Shown here one piece after another: positions 10,474 through 56,824 of a DNA stretch of 64,000 nt (the stretch's first letter is position 1; the number at the start of each line of letters is the position of its first letter). This DNA comes from Deltaproteobacteria bacterium (GTDB taxonomy: Bacteria > Desulfobacterota > DSM-4660 > Desulfatiglandales > HGW-15). The notes under the pieces are model-generated. The model worked only from the letters and a program-made list of their open reading frames with translations, made no database searches and was not told the DNA's origin. The stretch spans positions 13,121 to 77,120 of the forward strand of contig JAFDAM010000001.1 of NCBI GenBank assembly GCA_019313825.1, read 5' to 3'. Position numbers and translations under genes: made by a program.

Positions 10474-11496
10474 ATGGTGAAGAATGAAATTCCCCGTATA
10501 GGTGTAATAGGGGCTGGTAGCTGGGGCACTACCCTGGCAAACCTATTAGCTGAACAAGAGTATAACGTAGATCTGTGGGTCAGGGAAGAGGAAGTCTATG
10601 ACCAGATAAAACAGGAACGGATCAATAGGACCTTTCTACCGGATAATAAGCTTGTCCCTCAATTGAATCCGGTGAAGTCATATGAAGAGGCGCTATCAGG
10701 GAAAGATCTGATTCTGATGGTTGTCCCATCACATGTCTTTAGAGAGGTCTTAAACCATATGAAGCCGTATCTTCGTCCTGGTATGACGCTTATAGCAGCA
10801 ACCAAGGGCATAGAGAACGACTCCCTGAAGATCATGTCACAGGTTGCCGAAGAAGTCCTGCCAAAGGAATACACCGACCTTTTCGTCTGCCTGGCAGGTC
10901 CCAGTTTTGCCAAAGAAGTCATAAAAAAACAGCCCACAGCAGTGACCATCGCATGCCGCGATTTGAGCCATGTGGAACGTCTCCAAAGAATATTTTACAC
11001 GGAATTTTTTCGGGTATATATCAGTGACGATCTGATCGGGGTACAGCTCTGCGGGGCATTAAAGAACGTAATCGCCATAGGCGCAGGAGCGGCAGACGGG
11101 CTGGGCTTCGGGCTAAACGCCAGGGCCGCCTTGATTACCAGGGGACTGGCAGAGATTACCAGACTGGGAGTGGCAATGGGGGCCAACCCCATGACCTTTG
11201 CAGGATTGGCCGGTATAGGTGACCTTGTCTTGACATGTACAGGAGATCTGAGCAGGAATCGGACCTTGGGTCTCAAGATCGGAAAAGGGATGACTCTCGA
11301 AGAGATCACCGGCGGGATGAACATGGTAGCCGAAGGAGTAAAAACATCTCTGTCAGCATATCAACTAGCAAAAAAGATGTCTGTTGATATGCCCATCATC
11401 AACCAGGTATATGAGATTCTCTATCAAGGCAAGGACCCAAAAGCAGCAGTCAAGGAACTCATGACCAGGGAGTTAAAAAAAGAACTGGAGACCTAG
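10474..11496 (+). CDS. gpsA: NAD(P)H-dependent glycerol-3-phosphate dehydrogenase
   Basis: N-terminal Rossmann motif IGVIGAGSWGTTLA and a GpsA-typical core (GPSFAKEV, ALKNVIAIGAG). Confidence 0.9.
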   Translation: MVKNEIPRIGVIGAGSWGTTLANLLAEQEYNVDLWVREEEVYDQIKQERINRTFLPDNKLVPQLNPVKSYEEALSGKDLILMVVPSHVFREVLNHMKPYLRPGMTLIAATKGIENDSLKIMSQVAEEVLPKEYTDLFVCLAGPSFAKEVIKKQPTAVTIACRDLSHVERLQRIFYTEFFRVYISDDLIGVQLCGALKNVIAIGAGAADGLGFGLNARAALITRGLAEITRLGVAMGANPMTFAGLAGIGDLVLTCTGDLSRNRTLGLKIGKGMTLEEITGGMNMVAEGVKTSLSAYQLAKKMSVDMPIINQVYEILYQGKDPKAAVKELMTRELKKELET

Positions 11497-15298: not shown

Positions 15299-15556
15299 TC
15301 AGATATTAATAATATCCTTTTCTTTCATTCGGCTGATGATGAATTTTAAAAAGTACAAAAACAGCCACAAACAGCCCACTATTGAGATTACTCCGGCCAG
15401 GATTGGTACCCAGAAACCGTCCTGTTGAAGATGATTCAGACCAACATTGATGGAGATAAGAGCTATCAAAATGATATAGCCTATTATAAGTCCCAGGACG
15501 ATAAGAAGAGACCAGAGACTAAAATTTTTCAGAGGAAATGGCTCCTGGTAGATCAA
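15299..15556 (-). CDS. Small membrane protein translationally coupled to dnaA paralogue 1
   Basis: Two to three hydrophobic helices. Its start overlaps the dnaA-1 stop (ATGA overlap at 15553-15556). Confidence 0.5.
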   Translation of the reverse strand: MIYQEPFPLKNFSLWSLLIVLGLIIGYIILIALISINVGLNHLQQDGFWVPILAGVISIVGCLWLFLYFLKFIISRMKEKDIINI

Positions 15557-16902
15557 TGTATCATGCCTTTCAGATTTTCACCTAAAAAATCTACCTGATT
15601 TTTAATGTTTTTATCAATCTTTATCTTCCGTTCAATAACCTCAGATGAATACAGTACCGTGGAATGGTTCCTATCGATTGATCTGCCGATATCTTCTAGG
15701 GTGGCTTCCGTATAACATCGACAAAGATATGCGTATACGTTTCGAGGATAAGAATGGATCTTTTTTCTCGATTTTGATCGAAGCATCATGGGTTCAATCT
15801 TGAAATACCGACATATAATCTTCTTAATACTATCTATAGTGATTTGGCTCTGATCAGAGATATGGCTCTTGATCACCTCTTTGGCCAGATCCAGATCTAG
15901 CTTCGCCTTCAGGAGGTCGGTCTTGGCACTGAGACACCTGAGAGCGCTTTCAATCTGACGGACATCACGATTGAGATGTTCGGCAAAGAGATGAACTATA
16001 TCCTCAGAAAGGCGAAGTTTCTGCTCAGAGGCTTTTTTTTCTATTATCCTGACTCGGGTCTCATAATCCGGTTTCTCAAGGGTGGTAATAATACCGGCAG
16101 TCAGCCGAGATGAAAGCTCTTTTGTCATGGCCGGAATATCTTTGGGCAAAAGGGAGCTGGTAAAGATAATCTTCTTATTATCGTTTGCCAAAACCTCCAG
16201 CGTATATCCGAGCTCTTGCTGTGTCTTTTCCTTGCCGCTTAAAAAATGGACCCCCTCAAGGAGAAGGACATCGCAAGAATGACGATATCTGTTTTTAAAC
16301 TCTTCAATCCGTTTATTTTTCAGGGCAAAGATCATTTCATTCACGAAATCTTCGGCAGTAATATAGTATGCCCTGATATTGGGATCCTGTTCCAGGAGCA
16401 TGTGTCCTATCGACTGGGAGAGGTGACTTTTCCCCAGACCCGTACTGGCCCACATAAAAAGAGAGTCATAGGGCAAGCTTCCCCCCATGGCCAGGGCTTT
16501 TGAGGCTGAATAGGCAAACTCGTTGCAACCTCCCACAACAAATCGATCAAAGGTGAATTTCTTATTAAACCTTCTCCTGCCATTCCCCCTCTTTACCGGT
16601 ACATTGGGAACGGTTAATTGTCTGGATTCTTTAAACATATCAGGGACTACCGCTCTTTTTTCAGGGGCTTTAACCTTTAGCGTGATTTTATTATTGCCGT
16701 TGCCTGTCTTTTCAAGCTTCTCTTCCATGATGCCCATATAGTTCTCCTTAATCCAGTTAAGGGAAAACCTGTTAGGGCATCCAAGAACAATGGAATCATC
16801 CTTTTCATCCAGGCATATAATGGGATTTATCCATAGAGAGAAGCTGTTTTCCGGCAGCTTATCCTTGATATGATTCTTTACTTCTTCCCAAATGGTATTC
16901 AT
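15553..16902 (-). CDS. dnaA: Chromosomal replication initiator DnaA paralogue 1 (full-length, atypical Walker B)
   Basis: All four DnaA domains are recognisable: P-loop ASTGLGKSHL, VRQIESAL (Arg finger kept) and domain IV DRNHSTVLYS. Walker B reads VLLLEGVHFL instead of ..IDDIQF. Start at MNTIWEEV, with GGAG 6 nt upstream. Confidence 0.85.
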   Translation of the reverse strand: MNTIWEEVKNHIKDKLPENSFSLWINPIICLDEKDDSIVLGCPNRFSLNWIKENYMGIMEEKLEKTGNGNNKITLKVKAPEKRAVVPDMFKESRQLTVPNVPVKRGNGRRRFNKKFTFDRFVVGGCNEFAYSASKALAMGGSLPYDSLFMWASTGLGKSHLSQSIGHMLLEQDPNIRAYYITAEDFVNEMIFALKNKRIEEFKNRYRHSCDVLLLEGVHFLSGKEKTQQELGYTLEVLANDNKKIIFTSSLLPKDIPAMTKELSSRLTAGIITTLEKPDYETRVRIIEKKASEQKLRLSEDIVHLFAEHLNRDVRQIESALRCLSAKTDLLKAKLDLDLAKEVIKSHISDQSQITIDSIKKIICRYFKIEPMMLRSKSRKKIHSYPRNVYAYLCRCYTEATLEDIGRSIDRNHSTVLYSSEVIERKIKIDKNIKNQVDFLGENLKGMIH

Positions 16903-16959
16903 TATAAACTCCAAAGATGCAATAAATGAATATAATGTACCCCCATTTCCTAAGGACAT

Positions 16960-17447
16960 GTTATCTAAAAAACCGCGACGACTGTCAAAACGGATTGATA
17001 ACAGGTATTACTTAGGGCCCACTATGTTTTTGACGTAAGACAAGTTGCAGGAAAGACAAAATTTATTGCGCCGATGGTCCTAAGGCTCAGTTAAAAAACA
17101 ATAAATCATAAGTTAAAATTTTGTCTTTGAATTCAAAAGCTTCCCATGATTTGCCTTATAGTGTATAAAAACATCCACAATTATTAATCTCCGGTTTTCT
17201 CTTATTTTTGCCCTATTTTGACGATTTTCATTTTTTTTGTTTCATTTTTCGATCTTCTTTCTAGTGCAAATGTTCCTCCCGTTTTAGGTAAGGTTCTTGC
17301 ACTGGCATGAAGACGCCTGTAAATCAAGGAGATTAAATTTTTATCATTGTGTTTGTCTTTATATTGAGATATGGATAAAAAATATTTTAATAAAAATTAA
17401 AAAAATTATTTTTCTTATTTTTCTTAAAATAATCGAAAAAGGTTGAA
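16960..17447. other. AT-rich divergent intergenic region (dnaA-1 / ddl); possible origin-like or DnaA-regulatory region
   Basis: Very AT-rich with long T/A tracts. Only degenerate DnaA-box-like 9-mers were seen (acATCCACA at 17171-17179, TaTGGATAA near 17372). Confidence 0.3.
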
Positions 17448-18389
17448 ATGGAAAAGACAAATATCGCCGTATTAGCGGGTGGCTGGTCCGGGGAGAGAGA
17501 GATATCCATTAAGAGCGGTGAGGCCGTTTATAACGCCCTGGATAAGGAAAAATATAACGTGACCAGGTATGACCCTCGTGATGATCTTGCCTCCCTGATA
17601 AAAGAGATGGATGGAATAGACCTCGCCTTCATATTACTCCACGGGAAATTCGGCGAAGACGGATGCGTTCAGGGTTTCCTCGATCTCTTGGGCGTCCCTT
17701 TTGTGGGATCCGGTGTCCTGACCAGCGCCATGACTTTGAACAAAAGGATCACCAAGGAGATATACAAAGGTGCCGGGCTAAATGTCGTTAAGGATGTCAT
17801 GCTTAATAAAGACCGGAAGTTCGCTGTTGATAATATTATACAGGCTCTTGGCCCTTCAACGGTGGTAAAACCCGTTGCAGAAGGATCAAGCCTTGGCATC
17901 TCTCTCTGCCATAATGAAAAAGATCTTTTAAAAGGGATTAATCTGGCATTTCAATACGATCAGGAAGTGATGGTGGAACAATATATAAAGGGCCGGGAGA
18001 TCACCTGCTGTGTAATCGGAGAAGGGCAGATTGAAGCTCTCCCCCTTGTTGAGATCGTGCCTAATCAAGGGTATGCTTTTTTTGATTATGAGGCAAAGTA
18101 TACGCCGGGCGCTACAAAAGAGATCTGTCCTGCTCCAATATCAGACGCCCTCAGTGAGAAGGCCCGGTATTGCGCAAAACAGGCACATCAGATCTTGAGA
18201 TGCAAGGTGTGGAGCAGGACGGATATGATTATCCAGGATAATAAGATCTATCTGTTAGAGACAAATACCATACCGGGCATGACCAAAACCAGTCTCTTTC
18301 CTCTTGCGGCCAAGGCTGCCGGCATGACACTTTCACAACTTCTTGACAGATTAATAGAGCTATCCCTTGACCAAAGAGGTTCCGATTAG
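17448..18389 (+). CDS. ddl: D-alanine--D-alanine ligase
   Basis: ATP-grasp Ddl pattern (IAVLAGGWSGEREISIKSG, HGKFGEDG, EVMVEQYIKGRE, ETNTIPGMT). Confidence 0.9.
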   Translation: MEKTNIAVLAGGWSGEREISIKSGEAVYNALDKEKYNVTRYDPRDDLASLIKEMDGIDLAFILLHGKFGEDGCVQGFLDLLGVPFVGSGVLTSAMTLNKRITKEIYKGAGLNVVKDVMLNKDRKFAVDNIIQALGPSTVVKPVAEGSSLGISLCHNEKDLLKGINLAFQYDQEVMVEQYIKGREITCCVIGEGQIEALPLVEIVPNQGYAFFDYEAKYTPGATKEICPAPISDALSEKARYCAKQAHQILRCKVWSRTDMIIQDNKIYLLETNTIPGMTKTSLFPLAAKAAGMTLSQLLDRLIELSLDQRGSD

Positions 18390-18820: not shown

Positions 18821-18836
18821 TGTTTCACGTGAAACA
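18821..18836. promoter_or_regulatory. parS centromere site
   Basis: TGTTTCACGTGAAACA matches the chromosomal parS consensus tGTTNCACGTGAAACa. It is embedded in a 26-bp perfect palindrome (18816-18841), 170 nt upstream of parA. Confidence 0.85.
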
Positions 18837-19008: not shown

Positions 19009-19788
19009 ATGGGACAGGTCATCTCCATATCAAATCAGAAAGGCGGTGTCGGCAAGACCACGACCGCCGTGAATCTATCCGCTTCCCTCGCGTCGACAGA
19101 TAAAACATGTCTGCTTATAGACTGTGACCCCCAGGGTAATGCAACAACAGGTTTAGGCGTAGATAAGTCTGGTTTAGAAAACGGGTTTTATGAATTCATG
19201 TTTGGCTCCGAACCTGAGGAAAACGTTGTCACTGAGACCGATCTGCCCGGGCTATTCCTCATGGGTGCTACGAATGACTTGATAGGTGCTGAGGTGGAGA
19301 TGGTCATTTTTGATGATAGAGAATACCTTCTTAAAAAAAGACTTATGCCTCTAAAGGAAAAATATGACTATATCTTCCTGGATTGCCCCCCATCTCTCGG
19401 TTTTTTAACGCTGAATGCAATGACAGCCGCAGATTCGGTTCTGGTCCCCCTTCAGTGCGAATACTACGCCCTGGAGGGGCTGAGTGAATTGTTGAAAATC
19501 CTCAAAGCCGTCAAGAAGGGGCTTAATCCATCCCTTAATCTGGCCGGAATACTGTTAACAATGCATGATTCCCGCAATAATCTCTCAGCGCAGGTGGAGG
19601 ATGAGGTTAGGGGGCATTTTCAAGGGGTAGTATTCAATACGATTATTCCTCGAAATGTACGGCTGAGTGAGGCCCCAAGTTATGGGACGCCTATTCTTCT
19701 CTATGATATTAAGTCCATAGGTGCCCGGAGCTATCTTGCCCTGGCAAAAGAACTGATTAGCCGTGGAGGAAATTATGGCAAAACGTAA
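19009..19788 (+). CDS. parA: Chromosome partitioning ATPase ParA/Soj
   Basis: Deviant Walker A NQKGGVGKTTT. ParA-family throughout. Confidence 0.9.
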   Translation: MGQVISISNQKGGVGKTTTAVNLSASLASTDKTCLLIDCDPQGNATTGLGVDKSGLENGFYEFMFGSEPEENVVTETDLPGLFLMGATNDLIGAEVEMVIFDDREYLLKKRLMPLKEKYDYIFLDCPPSLGFLTLNAMTAADSVLVPLQCEYYALEGLSELLKILKAVKKGLNPSLNLAGILLTMHDSRNNLSAQVEDEVRGHFQGVVFNTIIPRNVRLSEAPSYGTPILLYDIKSIGARSYLALAKELISRGGNYGKT

Positions 19789-20620
19789 GGCCTTGGGAAA
19801 GGGATTATCGGCCCTTATCCCTGAAGCGAACAGGTTTGAAGCAGGGGGTGAGGAGTATTTTCAGTGCCCAATAGAGGAAATAGAGCCAAACCCGTATCAA
19901 CCACGCCAGGACTTCAAAAATGCTGATCTGGAAGAACTTGTCCTGTCAATAAAAGAGACGGGTATTATCACACCTATTCTGGTAAGCAAGGCAGAAAAGG
20001 GGTATCGTCTCATAGCGGGTGAACGCCGATGGAGGTCAGCTCAGAAGGCGGGTCTTAAAAGGGTACCTGTAGTAGTCAGAGAAACCACCCCCATTGAATC
20101 TCTGGAGTTGGCTTTAATAGAGAATATTCACAGAAAAGACCTGAATCCCATAGAAGAGGCCCTTGCCTATAAAAGATGGTTGGATGATGCCAATACCACC
20201 CAGGAGGCCCTTGCAAAGAAACTTGGCAAGGAACGTTCTACCATTACCAACATGCTAAGGCTACTTAATCTCTCACATGTCATTCAGAAGGATCTGATCG
20301 ACGGTCATCTCTCCATGGGCCATGCTCGTGTCCTGGCCGGGCTCAAAAGCGCGGATGAGCAAAAGAGAGTCCGGAATCTGATAATCAAAAAGGCCCTTTC
20401 AGTTCGCCAGTTGGAGGAATTGATTACAAAGAAGAGGCCGGGTGACCGTGTAAAAAAGAAAAAAGAGGAACAGGACCATTATATACAATCCCTTGCTGAC
20501 GATCTCAAAAGGTCATTGGGTACAAAAGTAGATATAAAGAAACGCGGGAATAGAGGAAGTATTAACATCTATTTCTATTCTGATGATGAACTCACTCGGC
20601 TTCTTGACCTTCTGACATGA
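19775..20620 (+). CDS. parB: Chromosome partitioning protein ParB/Spo0J
   Basis: MAKRKALGKGLSALI N-terminus, the GERRWRA arginine patch and an HTH region. Start taken at the internal ATG overlapping the parA end. Confidence 0.9.
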   Translation: MAKRKALGKGLSALIPEANRFEAGGEEYFQCPIEEIEPNPYQPRQDFKNADLEELVLSIKETGIITPILVSKAEKGYRLIAGERRWRSAQKAGLKRVPVVVRETTPIESLELALIENIHRKDLNPIEEALAYKRWLDDANTTQEALAKKLGKERSTITNMLRLLNLSHVIQKDLIDGHLSMGHARVLAGLKSADEQKRVRNLIIKKALSVRQLEELITKKRPGDRVKKKKEEQDHYIQSLADDLKRSLGTKVDIKKRGNRGSINIYFYSDDELTRLLDLLT

Positions 20621-46562: not shown

Positions 46563-49022
46563 CTATTCATCCATTAATTTTGCCACTCCAACTACCTTCT
46601 CTCCTTCGCCCAGGTTAATCAGTTTTACACCCTGGGTGTTCCGGCCGATGACAGAGATATCCGCCACCCCCATCCTGATGATCTTCCCCTGTTCGGTAAT
46701 GATCATCAGCTCATCCTGATTAGCCACCTGATAGGAATAGACAACCGGTCCGTTTCTCTCCGTGGCCTTTATGGTCAGTATCCCTTTACCGCCCCTTGAC
46801 TGGCACCGGTATTCTTCTGTCTTGGTCCTCTTTCCAAATCCGTTCTCCGTAACAGTGAGGATCGTGGCCCCCTCCTTAAGAGCCTCCATCCCGACCGCTT
46901 CATCGTCAGGCTCCATCCGGATCCCGATGTTCCCCGCAGCCACCCTTCCCATACCCCTCAGGTCAGACTCCTTGAACCGGATGGATTTTCCCTGGCGTGT
47001 TGCTATAAAGATATCGTCTTCACCGCCTGTAACCCTCACACAGATCAGTTCATCGTCTTCATTGATCTTTAACGCGATAATGCCCTTGGTCCTCGGGTTG
47101 CTGTAAGCAATGAGTTCGGTCTTTTTGACCAGGCCCTTCTTTGTGGCCATGACAACGTACTTTGCATCCTCAAAGTCCCTGACATTCAGAGTGGTTGCTA
47201 CGCGCTCTCCCTTCTGTAGCTCAAGGAGGTTTACTATTGCCTTACCCCTTGCCATACGGCCCGCCTCTTGAATCTCGTGTACCTTCTTCCAGTAGACCCT
47301 GCCCTTGTTTGTGAAAAAGAGGAGATAATCAAGGGAGGAGGCTACAAAGAGGTGCTCAACAAAGTCCTCGTCCTTCGGCACAACACCGGTAAGGCCCTTT
47401 CCACCTCGGCGCTGTGCCCTGTAAAGGCTTATGGGGTTCCGCTTGATATAACCCCTGTGGCTCATGGTAACGACCATGTCCTCTTCGGCAATCAGGTCTT
47501 CAAGCCCTATCTCTCCGTCCTCTTCGAGGATCTCGGTCCTTCGCTCATCACCATAGAGTTTGGTGATCTCCTTCATCTCGTCCTTGATTATCTGAAGGAC
47601 CTTGTCCGGACTATCCATGATGGCCTTGAAGTGGGCAATATTTGTTATAAGCTCACTGTATTCAGCATCAATCTTCTCGCGCTCCAGGCCCGTAAGTCTC
47701 TGGAGTCTCAAGTTAAGGATCTCCTGGGCCTGGATATCTGTGAACTCAAACTCCTCGATCAGTCTTGCCTTTGCCTCCGCAGGATCAGATGAAGACCTGA
47801 TAAGAGCGATCACATCATCGAGAAAATCCAACGCCTTTTTATAGCCCTCAAGGATGTGTGCCCTGGCCTCGGCCTTATTGAGATCAAAAAGGGTCCTTCT
47901 TATTATGACCTCTCGGCGGTGATCGATGAATTGTTCCAGGATCTCCTTGAGGTTCAGGACCTGTGGCCTTCCCTTTACGATCGCGAGAAAGATGATCCCA
48001 AAAGAGATCTCCATCTGGGTGAACTTGTAGAGGCGATTAAGTATCACAAGGGCCTTTCCATCCCTCTTGACATCGATCACGATCCGCATACCGTCCCGGT
48101 CGGATTCATCCCTGATGTCTGATATCCCTTCAATTTTCTTGTTCTTTACAAGCTCCGCGATCTTCTCCAGAAGTCGTGCCTTATTAACCTGATAGGGAAT
48201 CTCCGAGACAATAACCCTCTCCAGGTTCTTGCCGACCATCTCGACAAAGGCCCTCGCCCGTATCTTGATAATTCCCCTTCCTGTTTTATAGGCCTCGGTT
48301 ATTCCCCTGCGACCAATGATAAATCCCGCTGTGGGAAAATCCGGACCCTGCACGACCCCTGTAAGTTCTCCCATGGAAATCTCAGGATTGTCGATCAGAT
48401 CGACTGTGGCACTACACACCTCACCAAGATTATGCGGAGGGATGTTTGTTGCCATACCGACGGCAATGCCTGATGATCCGTTTACCAGCAAGTTGGGTAT
48501 GCTTGTGGGAAGGACAAGCGGTTCAAGGAGAGAGTCGTCATAGTTTGGCCCGAAATCCACTGTCTCCTTCTCCAGGTCTGACAGGAAGTCCTGGGCAAGT
48601 CTGGTCATGCGGACTTCGGTATATCGCATTGCGGCAGCAGGATCACCGTCAACAGAGCCGAAATTCCCCTGCCCGTCTATAAGGGGGTACCTTAAAGAGA
48701 AGTCCTGGGCCATCCTTACGATCGTGTCATAGACCGCAACATCCCCGTGAGGGTGGTACTTACCTATTACATCACCCACAACGCGGGCCGATTTTTTATA
48801 CGGCCTGTTGTAGTAATTTTTCAGGTCGTGCATTCCAAACAATACACGTCTGTGTACCGGTTTCAGCCCATCACGAATATCGGGCAGCGCCCTCCCCACT
48901 ATCACACTCATGGAGTACTCGAGATAGGCCTTCTTCATCTCTTCTTCTATGTTTACAAAAGTAAAATTACCATTCGAGACCATTTCTATTCCCCAAAATT
49001 CAGGCGAAGAGCGTTCGGCCAA
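46563..49022 (-). CDS. gyrA: DNA gyrase subunit A
   Basis: [27 protein letters not shown], the active-site region AAMRYTE and C-terminal beta-pinwheel repeats. The exact start is uncertain (alternative Met 14 codons in). Confidence 0.95.
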
Positions 49023-49064: not shown

Positions 49065-51467
<2,403 letters not shown>

Positions 51468-52583
51468 CTATATCCTCATCGGCATAACCAGGCCTAAAAA
51501 ACCTTTATCTTCTTCACCTTTTATTAGACATGGGCTGGAATTATCTATTAGTCCCAGTTCAACAATATCACTATCCATAGACTGAAGCACATCTAAAAAA
51601 TACCGTGAATTAAAACCCATCTCAAGGTGTTCATCTTTATATTCCACTACTATATTATCCTGAGCATCTCCAAGATCGGGATTAATTGAAACAAGTTTTA
51701 GATTATTATCTTCCATAATAATTTTTACTCCCCTGTAACTCTCACTACTCAAGATAATCATTCTCTTCATACCATCTAATAGCTCCTTATTTTTTATCTT
51801 TACTTGATATTTAACAGCCTTAGGAATAACAGAATTATAATCAGGAAACTTAGTTTCTAAAAGTCTAATCACAATAAGAGAATTCCCTTTTCTAGCCACA
51901 CAATTATTCTTTTTAAACCCTAAAAATATCTTCTCACCTTTAGTTATTAATCTATCCAACTCCTGCATTCCTTTTTTTGGTATCATAACTCCGTTGTCTA
52001 TCTTTAGATCTTCAATATTCTCGATCTCTTTATCCATCATAGATAAGCGGTGTCCATCTGTCGAGACCATTCTTAGATATGTCTTTCCCTTTTTATCTAC
52101 CTTTTCTATATATATCCCTGAGAGTTTAAACCCTGCCTCCTCTAATGTTACGGAATATATGGTCTTATTAATCATCTCGCTTAATACATCTCCTTCTATT
52201 TCAACCATACTTACCCCTTCAGGTTCAACAAAGACGGGAAATTCTTCAGCCGGGAGACATGCCATATTATATTTTGTCTTATCATCTGATATAAATACCC
52301 AGTTATTTTCTTTCTCTTTTAAATAAATATCCTGACTTTTACTTTCCTTTAATATCTCAAATAATTTTCTACCTAATATGGTGATACTTCCTGGATTTAT
52401 GACTTCAGCCGGAATCGTCTGCTGAAGACTTATCTCTAAATCAGTGGCTGATATCTGTATTCCCGAATCAACAGTTGATAAAAGTATCATTGATAGAATA
52501 GGCATATTACTCCTCTTCTCAACAATACTTTGAACCCTGGAAAGAGATCCATAAAGTTCGTCCCTTTTAATCTTTATCTCCAT
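51468..52583 (-). CDS. dnaN: DNA polymerase III beta sliding clamp
   Basis: Three-domain clamp pattern and a C-terminal ..GLVMPMRI. Start at MEIKIKRDEL with GGAGGAG 6 nt upstream. Markedly AT-rich coding sequence. Confidence 0.9.
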   Translation of the reverse strand: MEIKIKRDELYGSLSRVQSIVEKRSNMPILSMILLSTVDSGIQISATDLEISLQQTIPAEVINPGSITILGRKLFEILKESKSQDIYLKEKENNWVFISDDKTKYNMACLPAEEFPVFVEPEGVSMVEIEGDVLSEMINKTIYSVTLEEAGFKLSGIYIEKVDKKGKTYLRMVSTDGHRLSMMDKEIENIEDLKIDNGVMIPKKGMQELDRLITKGEKIFLGFKKNNCVARKGNSLIVIRLLETKFPDYNSVIPKAVKYQVKIKNKELLDGMKRMIILSSESYRGVKIIMEDNNLKLVSINPDLGDAQDNIVVEYKDEHLEMGFNSRYFLDVLQSMDSDIVELGLIDNSSPCLIKGEEDKGFLGLVMPMRI

Positions 52584-52844
52584 ATGTATCTCCTCCATTC
52601 TAAATATTATTTTTATAGTATTAAATATTAATAATAATAATATATATTGTTACATTTTTAGAAACTTAATTAACTCATTGAAAATAGAATAAATTTATTA
52701 ATTAAAATTTAAACATAGATTCTATTGTTTTAAAATATATTAGTTAAAAAATTATATTTTTCTTCTTCTAAATAAAAATTTTGAAAGAGATAGAAAGTTT
52801 TTTTAAAAGTAGTGAAAAAAAGTATAGAAAGTATTTTATTAATA
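52584..52844. other. Extremely AT-rich dnaA-dnaN intergenic region (candidate DNA-unwinding/origin element)
   Basis: Almost pure A/T for ~250 bp. Direct repeat ATAGAAAGT x2 (about 52790 and 52824). No consensus TTATCCACA boxes seen. Confidence 0.35.
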
Positions 52845-54152
52845 TCAGTTTAAAAAATTTTCAATATTATTAATATCTTCCCTTATATCTTTTCTTTTGT
52901 TTTTTAATTTATCTATCTTTTTAACCGCGTAGATTATTGTTGAGTGATCTTTATCTCCATATAGATATCCAATCTCAGAAAAAGAAAGATCTGTATGTTT
53001 TCTGCATAGATACATAGAAATATGTCTTGGGTAAGAATAAAACCTCTTTTTTTTATCAGAAATAAGCTCAGATACTGAGATATTAAAATACCCGGACGTA
53101 ATAGATTGTATATCTTTTACACTTAACTTAATACCTTTATTATTTTTAATAATAGATTTTATCATAGAGATATTAATATCTCCGTTATTCAGAGATGAAT
53201 AAGTTTCAAATCTAACAATATTTTTTAATAAACTTTTTATATTATCATTGGTTTTAACTAATAAAGATATTATATCCTTTGGAATATTAATTTTATTCTC
53301 TTTTATTTTTCTTTTAATAATATTTAATTTTGTATTTTGATCATATTCCTTAATCTCGATTAAAAGACCCCATCCTAATCTCGACTTTAATTGAGAATTA
53401 ATATTATTGATTCTGTTTAAAGGTCTGTCTCCGGTTACGACAATCTGTTTGTTTTCCATGTATAGATCATTAAATATAGAGAGAAATTCTTCCTGTACCC
53501 TTTTTCGGTTGGAGATATGTTGAATATCGTCAAATAATAATATATCTATATTAAGATATTTTTCTCTAAATTTATCAAAAATATTATTTCTTACTGAATA
53601 ATTATAATCAGACAGAAAGGTTTTAGATGATACATATCCTATTCGAAAATAAGGATCTTTATTAAGTATCTGATTACCTATTGCATTTAATAGATGAGTC
53701 TTACCAAGGCTTAGATTAGAAAAGATGTAGATAGGGTTATAATGGTTTCCCGGTCTATTAGCCACTTCAAAAGATGAGGAAAAGGCAAACCTATTACACT
53801 CCCCTATTATAAAACTGTCAAAAGTCATAGATATGTTTATATTATATTTAAATAAATCTGATTGTTTGGTTTGCTGTGGCTGAGATGATATGACTGTGGT
53901 TGACGGGTTATTATGTGAAAAGACTATCTCAGGAGCCTCTTTTAGTATCCGTTTAAAAGATTGTTTTATCTCTTCGAGGTAGTTATCGCGTAACCATTTG
54001 ATAATGAACTTGTTTGGGACCCCTATAATTGCGACATTATTATCCAGTTTATTAAGGGTTATCTGTGAGAACCATGTTTCAAATTCAGGTCTGGGTATTC
54101 GCTGTTTTAGACTTCTTGTGATCTGGTCCCAAATCCCAATTTCTGTTGACAT
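52845..54152 (-). CDS. dnaA: Chromosomal replication initiator DnaA paralogue 2 (canonical synteny, very AT-rich, atypical P-loop and Arg-finger region)
   Basis: Walker B LLFDDIQHI, SLGKTHLLNAIGN, RL.WGL and domain IV DKDHSTIIYA. The P-loop starts SNLSLGKT, and the box VII position reads NIKSLLKNI (Lys where Arg is expected). Confidence 0.85.
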   Translation of the reverse strand: MSTEIGIWDQITRSLKQRIPRPEFETWFSQITLNKLDNNVAIIGVPNKFIIKWLRDNYLEEIKQSFKRILKEAPEIVFSHNNPSTTVISSQPQQTKQSDLFKYNINISMTFDSFIIGECNRFAFSSSFEVANRPGNHYNPIYIFSNLSLGKTHLLNAIGNQILNKDPYFRIGYVSSKTFLSDYNYSVRNNIFDKFREKYLNIDILLFDDIQHISNRKRVQEEFLSIFNDLYMENKQIVVTGDRPLNRINNINSQLKSRLGWGLLIEIKEYDQNTKLNIIKRKIKENKINIPKDIISLLVKTNDNIKSLLKNIVRFETYSSLNNGDINISMIKSIIKNNKGIKLSVKDIQSITSGYFNISVSELISDKKKRFYSYPRHISMYLCRKHTDLSFSEIGYLYGDKDHSTIIYAVKKIDKLKNKRKDIREDINNIENFLN

Positions 54153-54252: not shown

Positions 54253-55002
54253 ATGACGTACTCTATTGGACTTGCCGGGAAAGGTGGAACCGGCAAGACA
54301 ACCATTGCAGGTCTGTTGATCAAATATCTCAATGAAAAAGGGAAGATTCCGGTCCTGGCAGTAGATGCAGATTCAAATGCCAATCTGAATGAGGTCCTGG
54401 GGCTTGAGGTCACGGAGACCCTTGGAGACGCAAGGGAAGAGATGAAGAAAGGTGTCTCTACTGGTATGACAAAAGATATATTTATGGAGATGAAACTGGG
54501 GGAGGCGGTTGTTGAGACAGAAGGCTTTGACCTTATCGTCATGGGTAGGCCTGAAGGGAGTGGTTGTTATTGTGCGGCCAACACATTACTTACCCAGTAT
54601 CTTGACAGATTAATAGATAATTATTCATGTGTAGTAATAGACAATGAAGCGGGGATGGAACATATCAGCAGGCTGACCACCAATAACATCGACCTACTTC
54701 TGATCATCTCCGATGCGTCACGAAGAGGCATCCTGTCCGCTGCCAGGATATCTGCTCTGACAGATGATTTGGGATTGAATATAGGAAATAAACTATTTAT
54801 TATTAATCAAGTGAAAGAGGGACAAGAGGAGGCATTAAAAAAGGCTGCGGATGAGCATCAACTGGAACTGGCCGGTATCATACCTGAGGACGACCTGGTA
54901 CGGGAATTTGATCTAAAGGGTAGACCTACAATTGAGCTTGACAAAAAGAGTAATGCCTTTAAGGCGGCATATGAGGTCTTTGATAGGATAATAGACATAT
55001 AA
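54253..55002 (+). CDS. cooC: CODH/ACS nickel-insertion accessory ATPase CooC/AcsF
   Basis: Deviant Walker A GKGGTGKTT and CooC-type CxC (GSGCYCAAN). RBS AAGGAGG. Confidence 0.85.
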   Translation: MTYSIGLAGKGGTGKTTIAGLLIKYLNEKGKIPVLAVDADSNANLNEVLGLEVTETLGDAREEMKKGVSTGMTKDIFMEMKLGEAVVETEGFDLIVMGRPEGSGCYCAANTLLTQYLDRLIDNYSCVVIDNEAGMEHISRLTTNNIDLLLIISDASRRGILSAARISALTDDLGLNIGNKLFIINQVKEGQEEALKKAADEHQLELAGIIPEDDLVREFDLKGRPTIELDKKSNAFKAAYEVFDRIIDI

Positions 55003-55273: not shown

Positions 55274-56824
55274 TTGGCCTTTGAAATTCCAAAACAACCC
55301 TATTCCGGAGAGATAGGAGAGACCACCATCGGTACAGGTAAGGGCGCTGTTACGCTGGGAGGGGAAGATTCATACCCTTTCCATACCTTTGAAGGAAAGA
55401 TGCCGAACCCTCCAAAGATCGCCATGGAGGTCTGGGATTACGATCCAACAGAGGAGTGGCCGGCAGCGGCAGTTGAGCCCTTTAAGGATGTAATATCATC
55501 GCCGGATGCATGGGCAAAAAAATGTGTTGATGAACATGGGGCTGACATGATAGTGCTCCAACTAAAGAGTACCGACCCCAACGGAATGGACAGGGGTGCG
55601 GACGAGGCCGCTGAAGTAGCGAAAAAGGTGGCTGATGCCGTTGACGTGCCGCTGGTCTTATGGGGTACGGCAAATAACCAGAAAGACGAAGAGGTCCTTA
55701 AAAAGATCTCAGAGGTATGTGAAGGGAAAAATGTGGCGCTTGGTCCGGTTGAAGAGGGGAATTACAAGGCAGTCGGTGCAAGCGCCTTGGGTTATAATCA
55801 CATTATTATCTCATCATCACCCATTGACGTGAATCTGGCCAAGCAGTTGAATATTCTCCTTGGAAACCTCGGGGTCCAGAGCAATAAAATCATCATAGAT
55901 CCCACGACAGGCGGACTCGGTTACGGCATGGAATACGGCTACTCCGTCATGGAGCGGATCCGTATGGCTGCCCTGACACAGGAAGACGAAAAACTCCAGA
56001 TCCCCATGATCAACAATATAGGTAATGAGGTATGGAAGTGCAAGGAGGTCAAGCAGCCCATAGATGAGGCCCCTGCGCAGGGTGACCCGGAGAAACGGGC
56101 TATCATGATGGAGGCGACAGCCGCTGTATGTTATCTGCTTGCCGGATCTGATGTGGCCATCCTCAGGCACCCTGAGAGCGTGCGTCTGACCCGTTCTTTC
56201 ATCGATCTCATGATCAACGGCGGTATGGCCACCGACGTTACGGAGATTGCAAAGAACCTGGACCTTGAAGAGGCTGATCTGACTGCCATATCGCCTGAGC
56301 CGAACCTTGACTTTGGTGAAAAAGAGGCATCCAGAGAGAAGCCTGCCAAGCCCAAGAAGAAGGAAGCGCCCAAGCCCAAAAAGGAAGCAAAGACGGCCGC
56401 GCCCAAACTCAAGAAGAAGGAAGAGCCTAAGGTAAAGGCCAAAGATGAGGCCAAGGCAAAGGCCGAGGATGAGGCCAAGGCAAAGGCCGAGGATGAGGCC
56501 AAGGCAAAGGCCGATGCCGACGCCAAGGTAAAGGCCGAAGAGGGTGCCAAGGCTGAGGCGGATGCTAAGGCAAAGGCCGACGCTGCGGCAAAGGCCGAAG
56601 ATGATGCCCGGAAAAAGGCCGAGGCCGACGCCAGGGCAAAACGCGAGGCTGGAGAGGATGAGCAGAGGCAGAAGAGGGCGGCTGAGCGGGAAAAACTCGC
56701 GGCAGAGAGAAAAAAGGTCCCTGAAAAGCCTGATACAATGACCCCTGCGGCTGTGCAGAAGACAGAGCAGGAAAAGATATTAGAGCATCTGAACAGGATA
56801 CACAGGAGAATACCTTTATATTAA
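55274..56824 (+). CDS. acsD: Corrinoid iron-sulfur protein small subunit (AcsD/CdhD type) with a ~190-aa Lys/Ala/Glu-rich C-terminal extension
   Basis: TTG start after AAAGGAGGT. The N-terminal ~330 aa are AcsD-like (TIM-barrel pterin-binding-like, ..LVLWGTAN.., ..IIDPTTGGLGYG..). The tail is low-complexity AKAKAEDE repeats. Confidence 0.8.
   Translation: MAFEIPKQPYSGEIGETTIGTGKGAVTLGGEDSYPFHTFEGKMPNPPKIAMEVWDYDPTEEWPAAAVEPFKDVISSPDAWAKKCVDEHGADMIVLQLKSTDPNGMDRGADEAAEVAKKVADAVDVPLVLWGTANNQKDEEVLKKISEVCEGKNVALGPVEEGNYKAVGASALGYNHIIISSSPIDVNLAKQLNILLGNLGVQSNKIIIDPTTGGLGYGMEYGYSVMERIRMAALTQEDEKLQIPMINNIGNEVWKCKEVKQPIDEAPAQGDPEKRAIMMEATAAVCYLLAGSDVAILRHPESVRLTRSFIDLMINGGMATDVTEIAKNLDLEEADLTAISPEPNLDFGEKEASREKPAKPKKKEAPKPKKEAKTAAPKLKKKEEPKVKAKDEAKAKAEDEAKAKAEDEAKAKADADAKVKAEEGAKAEADAKAKADAAAKAEDDARKKAEADARAKREAGEDEQRQKRAAEREKLAAERKKVPEKPDTMTPAAVQKTEQEKILEHLNRIHRRIPLY
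56444..56515 (+). repeat. Three tandem 24-nt coding repeats (GATGAGGCCAAGGCAAAGGCCGAG) inside the acsD tail
   Basis: Perfect x2 plus one copy with one end mismatch. Encodes (DEAKAKAE)x3. Confidence 0.9.

Follow-up and report, generated by a model that had tools for sequence, protein, structure and literature searches.

The stretch of DNA analysed here (the window, 64,000 nucleotides) belongs to a public contig of 85,368 bp from a metagenome-assembled genome (MAG) of sulfate-reducer type labelled 'Deltaproteobacteria bacterium', and it carries two complete dnaA genes, both of which are called DnaA in GenBank. The gene that we name dnaA1 (15553–16902, minus strand) encodes a protein of 449 amino acids (MBW2608741.1), and dnaA2 (52845–54152, minus strand, 28% GC) encodes a protein of 435 amino acids (MBW2608776.1). 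Both products contain the Pfam domains DnaA_N, Bac_DnaA and Bac_DnaA_C and score above the cut-off of the TIGR00362 equivalog (389.6 bits for DnaA1 and 418.4 bits for DnaA2; cut-off 343.9). DnaA1 gives an end-to-end four-domain alignment with Bacillus subtilis DnaA (8BTG; E = 4e-76, residues 6–446 covered), and its identity with DnaA2 is 26%. The initial annotation had proposed two full-length four-domain DnaA proteins, of which the product of dnaA1 is not encoded next to dnaN, and these matches bear it out: DnaA1 is a real, conserved second DnaA copy. As judged from its relatives, the dnaA1 family appears to co-exist with an origin-linked dnaA2 throughout Desulfatiglandales-like bacteria.

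The start of DnaA1 is the ATG at 16902 (MNTIWEE...), which has a GGAG six bases upstream. The open reading frame (ORF) of 468 amino acids that can be read from 16959 (15553–16959, minus strand) is an upstream extension of dnaA1 without a ribosome-binding site; the 449-amino-acid form is exactly that of MBW2608741.1, and the relatives are all 444–453 amino acids long. These relatives number 120, with identities of 63–89%, and 116 of them are full-length and were used in residue counts, together with 115 sequences of the DnaA2 family and a comparison set of 85 other D-type (canonical) DnaAs from the same search. The best identity is only 89% because the 90% cluster that contains the protein identical to DnaA1 has a 52-amino-acid fragment as its representative; the protein is therefore not returned by homology searches, and look-ups of this protein may mislead. 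dnaA1 and its nearest relative are 91% identical in nucleotides and 89% in amino acids, with a ratio of nonsynonymous to synonymous substitution rates (dN/dS) of 0.18. At the 132 family columns that are at least 95% conserved the protein of the window shows three deviations, all conservative. dnaA1 is thus well maintained under purifying selection, apart from a single radical substitution at a catalytic residue, which is described below.

The register of the motifs was taken from HMMER alignments of both copies to B. subtilis DnaA (8BTG) and Thermotoga maritima DnaA (2Z4R), and residue counts from a MAFFT alignment of 234 sequences. Unless stated otherwise residues are numbered as in Escherichia coli DnaA, after a sequence in which, as an internal check, residues 178, 235, 236, 285, 334 and 433–436 agree with the published names. 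For E204, D269, R281, R285, V211/R245 and the residues of domain IV, the roles given here are those generally known for the E. coli protein. The P-loop of DnaA1 is ASTGLGKS (16426–16449, minus strand), as the initial annotation had read it: it has A-S where the canonical GxxGxGK[ST] P-loop has its first glycine pair, it fits [AG]x4GK[ST], and the segment TGLGKSH is invariant in the 116 relatives. The sequence EDFVNEMI (16330–16353, minus strand) holds, from the alignment to 8BTG, the equivalent of E204 and the single-stranded DNA (ssDNA)-binding isoleucine (B. subtilis I190, E. coli V211), so that the hydrophobic residue of the initiator-specific motif is present; it is Ile in 100 and Val in 15 members of the family. 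The box VII arginine finger, R266 in DnaA1 (equivalent to R285), lies in SSRL (16102–16113, minus strand), and the sensor II arginine, R315 in DnaA1 (equivalent to R334), in DVRQIESAL (15940–15966, minus strand); both are kept in 116 of 116 relatives. VRQIESAL had initially been taken for the box VII arginine, an assignment that the alignment corrects to sensor II. The DnaA1 family thus keeps K178, E204 (116/116), I/V211, R285 and R334. In domain IV the box-reading residues are mostly kept (R399, R407, H434 and T436, with Asn for D433), within the signature RNHSTV (N-H-S-T at positions 433–436).

The Walker B motif is where the protein of the window departs from its own family. Its LLLEGVHF aligns on LLIDDIQF with both solved structures, which confirms the register first proposed by eye, and the two codons at the acidic positions, GAG GGG (16252–16257, minus strand), encode E216 and G217 of DnaA1, so that the pair of acids (DD) typical of canonical DnaA is not present. 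The first acid is Glu in all 116 DnaA1 relatives, and the second is Glu in 110, Asp in four, Gln in one and Gly in one. The description of this site as a DD-to-EG change is therefore right in that the second acid is missing in the window, but overstated, as the family norm is EE and a single residue is aberrant. The nearest relative has GAG GAA at this place; the second codon differs at two bases, which makes a trivial single-base error unlikely. The glycine is private to this genome and not a designed feature of the paralogue. The E217G change should slow hydrolysis, with Mg-ATP binding, via E216, left intact. In the wider clade to which DnaA1 belongs (see below) the second acid is absent from about one in six representatives (~16%), and its loss is evidently tolerated by the paralogue.

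DnaA2 differs from DnaA1 in the opposite sense: its family, and not only the copy of the window, has lost residues that are nearly invariant elsewhere. The protein of the window has the P-loop SNLSLGKT, an intact Walker B (LLFDD) and the sensor I Asp (D269), while R281 is replaced by Gln, E204 by Lys and the ssDNA-binding Ile (I190/V211) by Asn; its arginine finger (R285) is present in KSRL, sensor II is NIKSLLKN with Lys in place of R334, and the domain IV signature is KDHSTI. The initial annotation had described a reverse pattern, with Walker B preserved and both the P-loop and the arginine finger altered in this copy. Walker B and the P-loop are indeed as described; the arginine finger is intact, and the changed site is the sensor II arginine, together with others. 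At the level of families, position 172 is Ser in 99 and Cys in 12 DnaA2 sequences, Ala in 83 and Ser in 33 DnaA1 sequences, and Gly in 71, Ser in 12 and Ala in two of the 85 other D-type proteins. Position 175 is Gly in 66 and Ser in 48 of the DnaA2 family, and always Gly in the DnaA1 family (116) and in the comparison set (85). E204 is replaced in most DnaA2 proteins (K 47, N 34, D 21, E 12) and kept in all 116 DnaA1 proteins and in 78 of the comparison set; the ssDNA-binding I/V211 has become Asn in 53 and Thr in 49 DnaA2 sequences (DnaA1 family: I 100, V 15, as above; comparison set: I or V in 81). R334 is Lys in 112 of the 115 DnaA2 sequences and Arg in 116 DnaA1 sequences and 84 of the comparison set, and R399 is likewise Lys in 112 DnaA2 and Arg in 116 DnaA1 proteins. 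Averaged over columns, conservation of the AAA+ core amounts to 0.85 in DnaA1 versus 0.69 in DnaA2; domains I and IV are conserved alike (0.65 versus 0.66 and 0.74 versus 0.72, respectively), so that the two sets have a similar depth and only the ATPase module of DnaA2 is relaxed. Motif erosion at the family level is thus one-sided, DnaA2 losing G172/G175, E204, the ssDNA-binding Ile and the sensor II Arg, and DnaA1 keeping the counterparts. Two of these positions have known mutant phenotypes: strand separation is lost, and nucleotide binding kept, in B. subtilis I190A and in the equivalent mutants of three other species (PMC8287927), and the hyperactive E. coli mutant R334A binds ATP but cannot be stimulated by Hda to hydrolyse it (table in PMC3905854). 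dnaA2 is also persistently rich in AT: the gene has 28% GC and the spacer between dnaA2 and dnaN 11.8%, for 46.7% over the window, and the relatives of the gene have 25–37% GC (L015, L017, L044, L069 and L084; here and below L numbers designate individual related loci).

The position of DnaA1 among DnaA proteins was obtained by an exhaustive HMMER search over 1.84 billion representatives followed by a motif scan of 150 representatives, and from a neighbour-joining tree (156 sequences, 100 bootstraps). DnaA1 falls within a clade of 68 members that holds every sequence with Glu as the first Walker B acid; we define this clade here, from sequence, as the E-type clade. The DnaA2 family is monophyletic and lies outside the E-type clade in 100 of 100 bootstraps, and in BLASTP DnaA2 is closest to canonical DD DnaAs (about 275 bits, versus about 190 bits to E-type members). 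The signature of the clade comprises a P-loop without GG, a sensor II motif D[VI]RQ[LIM]ES, an arginine finger SRLxxG without Trp, loss of the sensor I Asp and of R281, and a variable position 433 in place of D433; DnaA1 has all of these features, and has lost H136 as well. The Walker B pairs found in the clade are EE (28), ED (19), EG (6), EK (2), EN (2), EQ (1), DG (2), DN (2) and DE (1). Among the 156 DnaAs the E-type Walker B Glu always occurs with loss of the sensor I Asp (Ser, Thr, Cys, Asn or Pro instead), and usually with loss of R281, a covariation that may reflect compensatory re-wiring of the nucleotide pocket. Both Desulfovibrio sp. 7SRBS1 and Nitratidesulfovibrio sp. D1 have annotated DnaAs that belong to the E-type clade, and the E-type gene lies away from dnaN in all three loci sampled outside Desulfatiglandales. 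The E-type DnaA clade is deep and not linked to dnaN, and this clade-level picture is the new part of the present work. Some Desulfatiglandales MAGs contain two E-type copies (L018 and L078, on one 4.14-Mb contig; L014 and L036; L030 and L037), so that the total would be three dnaA genes if DnaA2 occurs there as well; the additional copy is found away from the parAB/ddl neighbourhood described below.

The origin of replication is likely to be located at dnaA2, and not at dnaA1. In the window, cumulative GC skew has its minimum at 52–53 kb, the skew changing from values of about −0.1 to −0.4 (46–53 kb) to values of about +0.1 to +0.2 (54–64 kb), and the same switch of sign occurs at dnaA2 in two chromosome-level MAG assemblies, L085 (CP070840.1) and L069 (OY762721.1). 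In L069 dnaA1 and the divergent ddl lie inside a uniformly negative stretch without any switch, so that the switch at dnaA2 is not merely an effect of divergent transcription. The spacer between dnaA2 and dnaN (52599–52844, 246 bp, 11.8% GC) coincides with the skew minimum and is the best candidate for an unwinding region. It is also dnaA2, and not dnaA1, that is followed by dnaN (51468–52598, minus strand), gyrB (49065–51461, minus strand) and gyrA (46563–49022, minus strand).

Upstream of dnaA1 the divergent spacer to ddl (16903–17447, 545 bp) is AT-rich, as previously noted, with 30% GC, and its length is kept at about 500–770 bp in relatives. It contains a head-to-head pair of DnaA boxes, TGTGGATGT-TT-TTATACACT on the dnaA1 strand (17160–17179), which is probably an operator. 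This pair was described by the pattern TGTGNATAA-NN-TTATNCACA, that is, a palindromic pair of DnaA-box-like 9-mers with a fixed gap of 2 bp and up to three mismatches over 16 specified positions. Of 77 spacers upstream of E-type dnaA genes 36 contain it, at about −280 or about −445, two loci having a perfect copy, and with 67 sites in all in the 1.27 Mb of fetched loci it is about 30-fold more frequent in the spacers than elsewhere in these loci. E-type copies outside the parAB/ddl neighbourhood have the pair in front of them too, for example in L039, where the dnaA gene lies upstream of an atp operon. As it travels with the gene, an (auto)regulatory operator is favoured over an origin element, and the presence of a palindromic box pair in the upstream region of dnaA1 itself suggests autoregulation. 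The promoter region of dnaA1 has a −35-like sequence, CTTTGACAG (16982–16989, minus strand), which is the top k-mer of the spacers (47 of 76, compared with at most 16 in shuffles). k-mer enrichment yielded mainly this −35-like TTGACAG and poly-A, the box pair surfacing only on positional inspection, and a scan for promoters and terminators gave nothing above shuffles. A reading of the spacer by eye in terms of DnaA-trio elements or a basal unwinding system (BUS), as defined in PMC8287927, was unconvincing and was dropped.

On its other side dnaA1 is followed by an ORF of 85 amino acids (15299–15556, minus strand) with two predicted transmembrane helices, which are our reading of two hydrophobic segments. 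The coupling of this membrane protein to dnaA1 had been described as an ATGA overlap; the genes are indeed coupled, but the overlap with the dnaA1 stop is TTGA, with a TTG start, ATGA being the form found in most relatives. An ORF of about 85 amino acids follows dnaA1 in at least 50 loci, with a start/stop overlap of 4 nucleotides in 46 of 60, and the family has a loop motif Q[DP]GFW[VM]P (QDGFWVP in the window). It has no match in Pfam or NCBIfam, and it seems to be unannotated in GenBank, as the flanking accessions MBW2608740 and MBW2608741 are consecutive. The former is an ORF of 60 amino acids (MBW2608740.1; 15043–15225, plus strand), convergent with the dnaA1 operon, without a Pfam match and with 45–75% identity in most related loci.

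The remaining neighbours of dnaA1 are those initially listed: ddl, encoding D-Ala-D-Ala ligase, divergent from dnaA1 (17448–18389, plus strand), a perfect 16-bp parS, TGTTTCACGTGAAACA (18821–18836), 170 bp upstream of parA and without a second match in the window at up to three mismatches, parA (19009–19788, plus strand) and parB (19763–20620, plus strand). A scan of one genome per GTDB species gave 493 loci encoding DnaA1 relatives, of which the best 80 were used; these come almost all from MAGs labelled Desulfatiglandales, Desulfatiglans or Desulfobacteraceae. Gene order in the fetched loci was deduced from tblastn searches with the proteins of the window. The dnaA1 neighbourhood is kept in about 60 loci, and the recurrent order is plsY, parB, parA, (ddl), then divergently dnaA1, the 85- and 60-amino-acid ORFs, (birA) and gyrB-dnaN-dnaA2, with dnaA2 usually 6–10 kb downstream of dnaA1 and convergent with it. 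Both copies are linked in at least eight related loci (L016, L017, L027, L032, L044, L065, L067 and the chromosome-level MAG L069, OY762721.1). The other flank of dnaA2, for which four complete and two partial flanks were compared, is conserved as well, with a cooC-like gene and cdhD. The cooC-like ATPase gene (54253–55002) stands between dnaA2 and cdhD, an adjacency kept in L085 and L069, and the CdhD homologue (CO dehydrogenase/acetyl-CoA synthase delta subunit; 55274–56824, plus strand) has a Lys/Ala/Glu-rich low-complexity C-terminal tail of about 170 amino acids. In relatives gyrA-(gpsA)-birA are contiguous, whereas in the window gpsA (10474–11496) is 35 kb away from gyrA; the 37-kb separation of dnaA1 and dnaA2 thus stems from a derived rearrangement, one breakpoint of which lies between gyrA and gpsA. 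The gene order of the window is poorly explained by one clean inversion, the skew being positive from 1 to 28 kb and mostly negative from 29 to 53 kb, and only the breakpoint is claimed.

The reading that we favour, tentatively, is that DnaA1 is this genome's orthologue of a second protein of the DnaA family, conserved and functional, that probably acts together with DnaA2 at the origin next to dnaA2-dnaN. DnaA1 would bind ATP-Mg by means of its P-loop, with the invariant TGLGKS, and of Glu216 in Walker B, oligomerize through its intact arginine finger, engage ssDNA via the conserved Ile of the initiator-specific motif and bind DnaA boxes through domain IV, including the box pair upstream of its own gene; the coupled genes would allow stoichiometric production of DnaA1 and its two-helix membrane partner. 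DnaA2, in which residues for ATP hydrolysis and ssDNA binding appear to be lost family-wide and domains I and IV kept, would contribute origin-proximal box binding with a weakened ATPase, and DnaA1 would supply the ATP switch and the unwinding competence. It is the retention of motifs in DnaA1, taken together with the family-wide losses in DnaA2, that makes joint action at the origin most likely in our view. The initial annotation had suggested a division of labour based on complementary defects of the two copies. The copies do differ in the AAA+ motifs that they keep, and a division between whole proteins is plausible. In AAA+ proteins, however, Walker A, Walker B and sensor II act in cis on one nucleotide, and the arginine finger alone acts in trans, being donated by the neighbouring subunit; as the listed motifs act in cis and the arginine finger is intact in both proteins, such defects cannot rescue each other in a hetero-oligomer. 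A stronger form of the proposal, in which the initiator of Desulfatiglandales (perhaps of Desulfobacterota more widely) is split into two obligatory paralogues that form an ORC-like hetero-oligomeric orisome with membrane coupling, DnaA2 being a degenerate box-binding scaffold and DnaA1 the ATP-switched unwinding subunit, co-produced beside parS-parAB with the small membrane protein, is in our opinion speculative and rather improbable.

Several observations weigh against joint action at the origin. No canonical DnaA-box cluster is found at either dnaA locus of the window, whether with TTATCCACA and at most one mismatch or with exact TTATNCACA, and in 87 loci there are at most three DnaA boxes per 400 bp, so that the placement of the origin follows from skew, AT content and canonical synteny only; a recurrent 'box' inside dnaA1 corresponds to the codons of the conserved LWIN motif. 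DnaA1 has Ser in place of the sensor I Asp (D269) and Glu in place of R281, two residues that matter in E. coli and are gone across the E-type clade, and D433 of domain IV is Asn across the DnaA1 family. The loss of the second Walker B acid in ~16% of the clade means that hydrolysis may be dispensable, which suits a regulator as well as an initiator, and E217G itself could be a population variant or a MAG consensus error. Finally, the residue losses of DnaA2 might be compensated in ways invisible to sequence analysis. Some of these points lead to the main rival explanation, which we regard as possible but doubtful: DnaA1 would be an accessory regulator derived from DnaA, perhaps tethered to the membrane, which either controls transcription by binding DnaA boxes or acts on initiation or segregation through titration or as a negative regulator, and DnaA2 alone would fire the origin. 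This would agree with the location of DnaA2 at the skew switch and of every sampled E-type gene away from dnaN, with the fact that the sole robust cis element is an operator-like palindromic box pair that moves with the gene, with the dispensable second Walker B acid and with the clade-wide loss of the sensor I Asp and R281. Yet a pure regulator would have no need for the DnaB-contacting Phe of domain I, the ssDNA-binding Ile, the arginine finger, E204 and the sensor II Arg, all of which are invariant or nearly so in the 116 relatives, and DnaA2, which would have to open the origin by itself, is devoid of the Ile that, when mutated, leaves the DnaA of four species unable to separate strands.

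The other explanations that we considered are progressively less likely. If there were two initiators for two origins, DnaA1 firing the ddl-dnaA1 spacer next to parS and DnaA2 firing dnaA2-dnaN, this would account for a spacer that is long (about 500–770 bp), conserved in length, AT-rich, provided with DnaA-box-like sites and adjacent to parS-parAB. It is an unlikely arrangement nevertheless, since neither the window nor L069 has a GC-skew switch at dnaA1/ddl, the switch being at dnaA2, the spacer holds one box pair and no cluster, E-type copies in unrelated surroundings, for example before the atp operon, have the same pair in front of them, and the two loci are only about 6–10 kb apart in relatives. 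The nature of the E217G substitution, radical, at a catalytic position, private to one genome and found in a MAG, might also be taken to mean that dnaA1 of the window is decaying or inactivated, with E217G as a first lesion, or that the glycine is a sequencing or consensus artefact. We consider either quite improbable: the ORF is intact, the dN/dS value is low (0.18) and deviations at conserved columns are limited to three conservative ones; the codon differs by two bases (GAA versus GGG), which is atypical of a single-base or homopolymer-length error; and EG, EQ, EK, EN and DG recur independently in the clade. Least of all do we credit a chimeric contig, which the initial annotation had named as a possible flaw, or a recent horizontal acquisition of one dnaA. 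The 28% GC of dnaA2 in a window of 47% GC and a gene order unlike that of relatives might point that way, but the pair is linked on single contigs in at least eight related loci, including two chromosome-level MAG assemblies, and the low GC of dnaA2 is conserved in relatives (25–37%), which together rule this explanation out; both flanks of each gene are moreover syntenic with relatives, and a rearrangement that broke the order once, between gyrA and gpsA, accounts for the difference.

DnaA1 shares with the canonical DnaA of B. subtilis (8BTG) and E. coli the four domains, the P-loop Lys, the first Walker B acid, E204, the Ile of the initiator-specific motif, the arginine finger and the sensor II Arg. 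It differs from them in its location off dnaN and off the skew switch, in having EE (EG here) and not DD, in its P-loop without GG, in its co-existence with another DnaA and in its coupling to a membrane ORF. Two complete dnaA genes in one chromosome occur occasionally in Desulfovibrionia, and also in Chlamydiales (bioRxiv 10.1101/2025.08.05.668638). The chlamydial DnaA1/DnaA2 pair results from a duplication independent of the one described here. On NF009087 (PRK12422), presumably the chlamydial DnaA model, DnaA1 scores 149.4 bits for a cut-off of 657 and is not a member. The second DnaAs of Desulfovibrionia (WP_424303197.1 of Desulfovibrio sp. 7SRBS1 and WP_434755482.1 of Nitratidesulfovibrio sp. 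D1) belong to the same E-type clade as DnaA1, are not linked to dnaN and share with it the signature LLLED, xxxPGLGKTH, DVRQ[LI]ES and R.HSTV, but they are about 31–37% identical to it, have thyX and kup as neighbours and have no conserved two-helix membrane partner. In the literature we found only a passing remark on characterised DnaA paralogues in Desulfobacterota. Hda/HdaA is, like DnaA1, a DnaA-derived AAA+ paralogue that exists alongside DnaA, but it consists of the AAA+ module only (about 230–250 amino acids); DnaA1 scores 76.6 on TIGR03420 (Hda; cut-off 194.8) and has domains I and IV, and is therefore not Hda. With the IstB/DnaC-type helper ATPases (NF038214) it shows a partial AAA+ overlap only (34.5 bits for a cut-off of 200) and is not a member. 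The archaeal Orc1/Cdc6 sets and the eukaryotic ORC consist of related AAA+ initiator paralogues that work together, with a full ATPase site in only part of the subunits; the resemblance to a hypothetical DnaA1–DnaA2 hetero-oligomer is an analogy from another lineage.

These observations have a practical side, as automatic annotation names both genes DnaA, so that origin prediction and the rotation of genomes to start at dnaA can choose the wrong copy, and public annotation lacks the coupled membrane ORF. To our knowledge, the DnaA of almost all bacteria is regarded as the one initiator, sufficient by itself. In the present case an entire order appears to keep two DnaAs, of which the origin copy has lost near-invariant residues that experiments show to be needed for regulated ATP hydrolysis and strand separation, and the unlinked copy has kept them. 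If the two proteins do act together, this would be a case of subfunctionalization of a bacterial initiator, and would provide a natural test of which activities of DnaA need to reside in one polypeptide.

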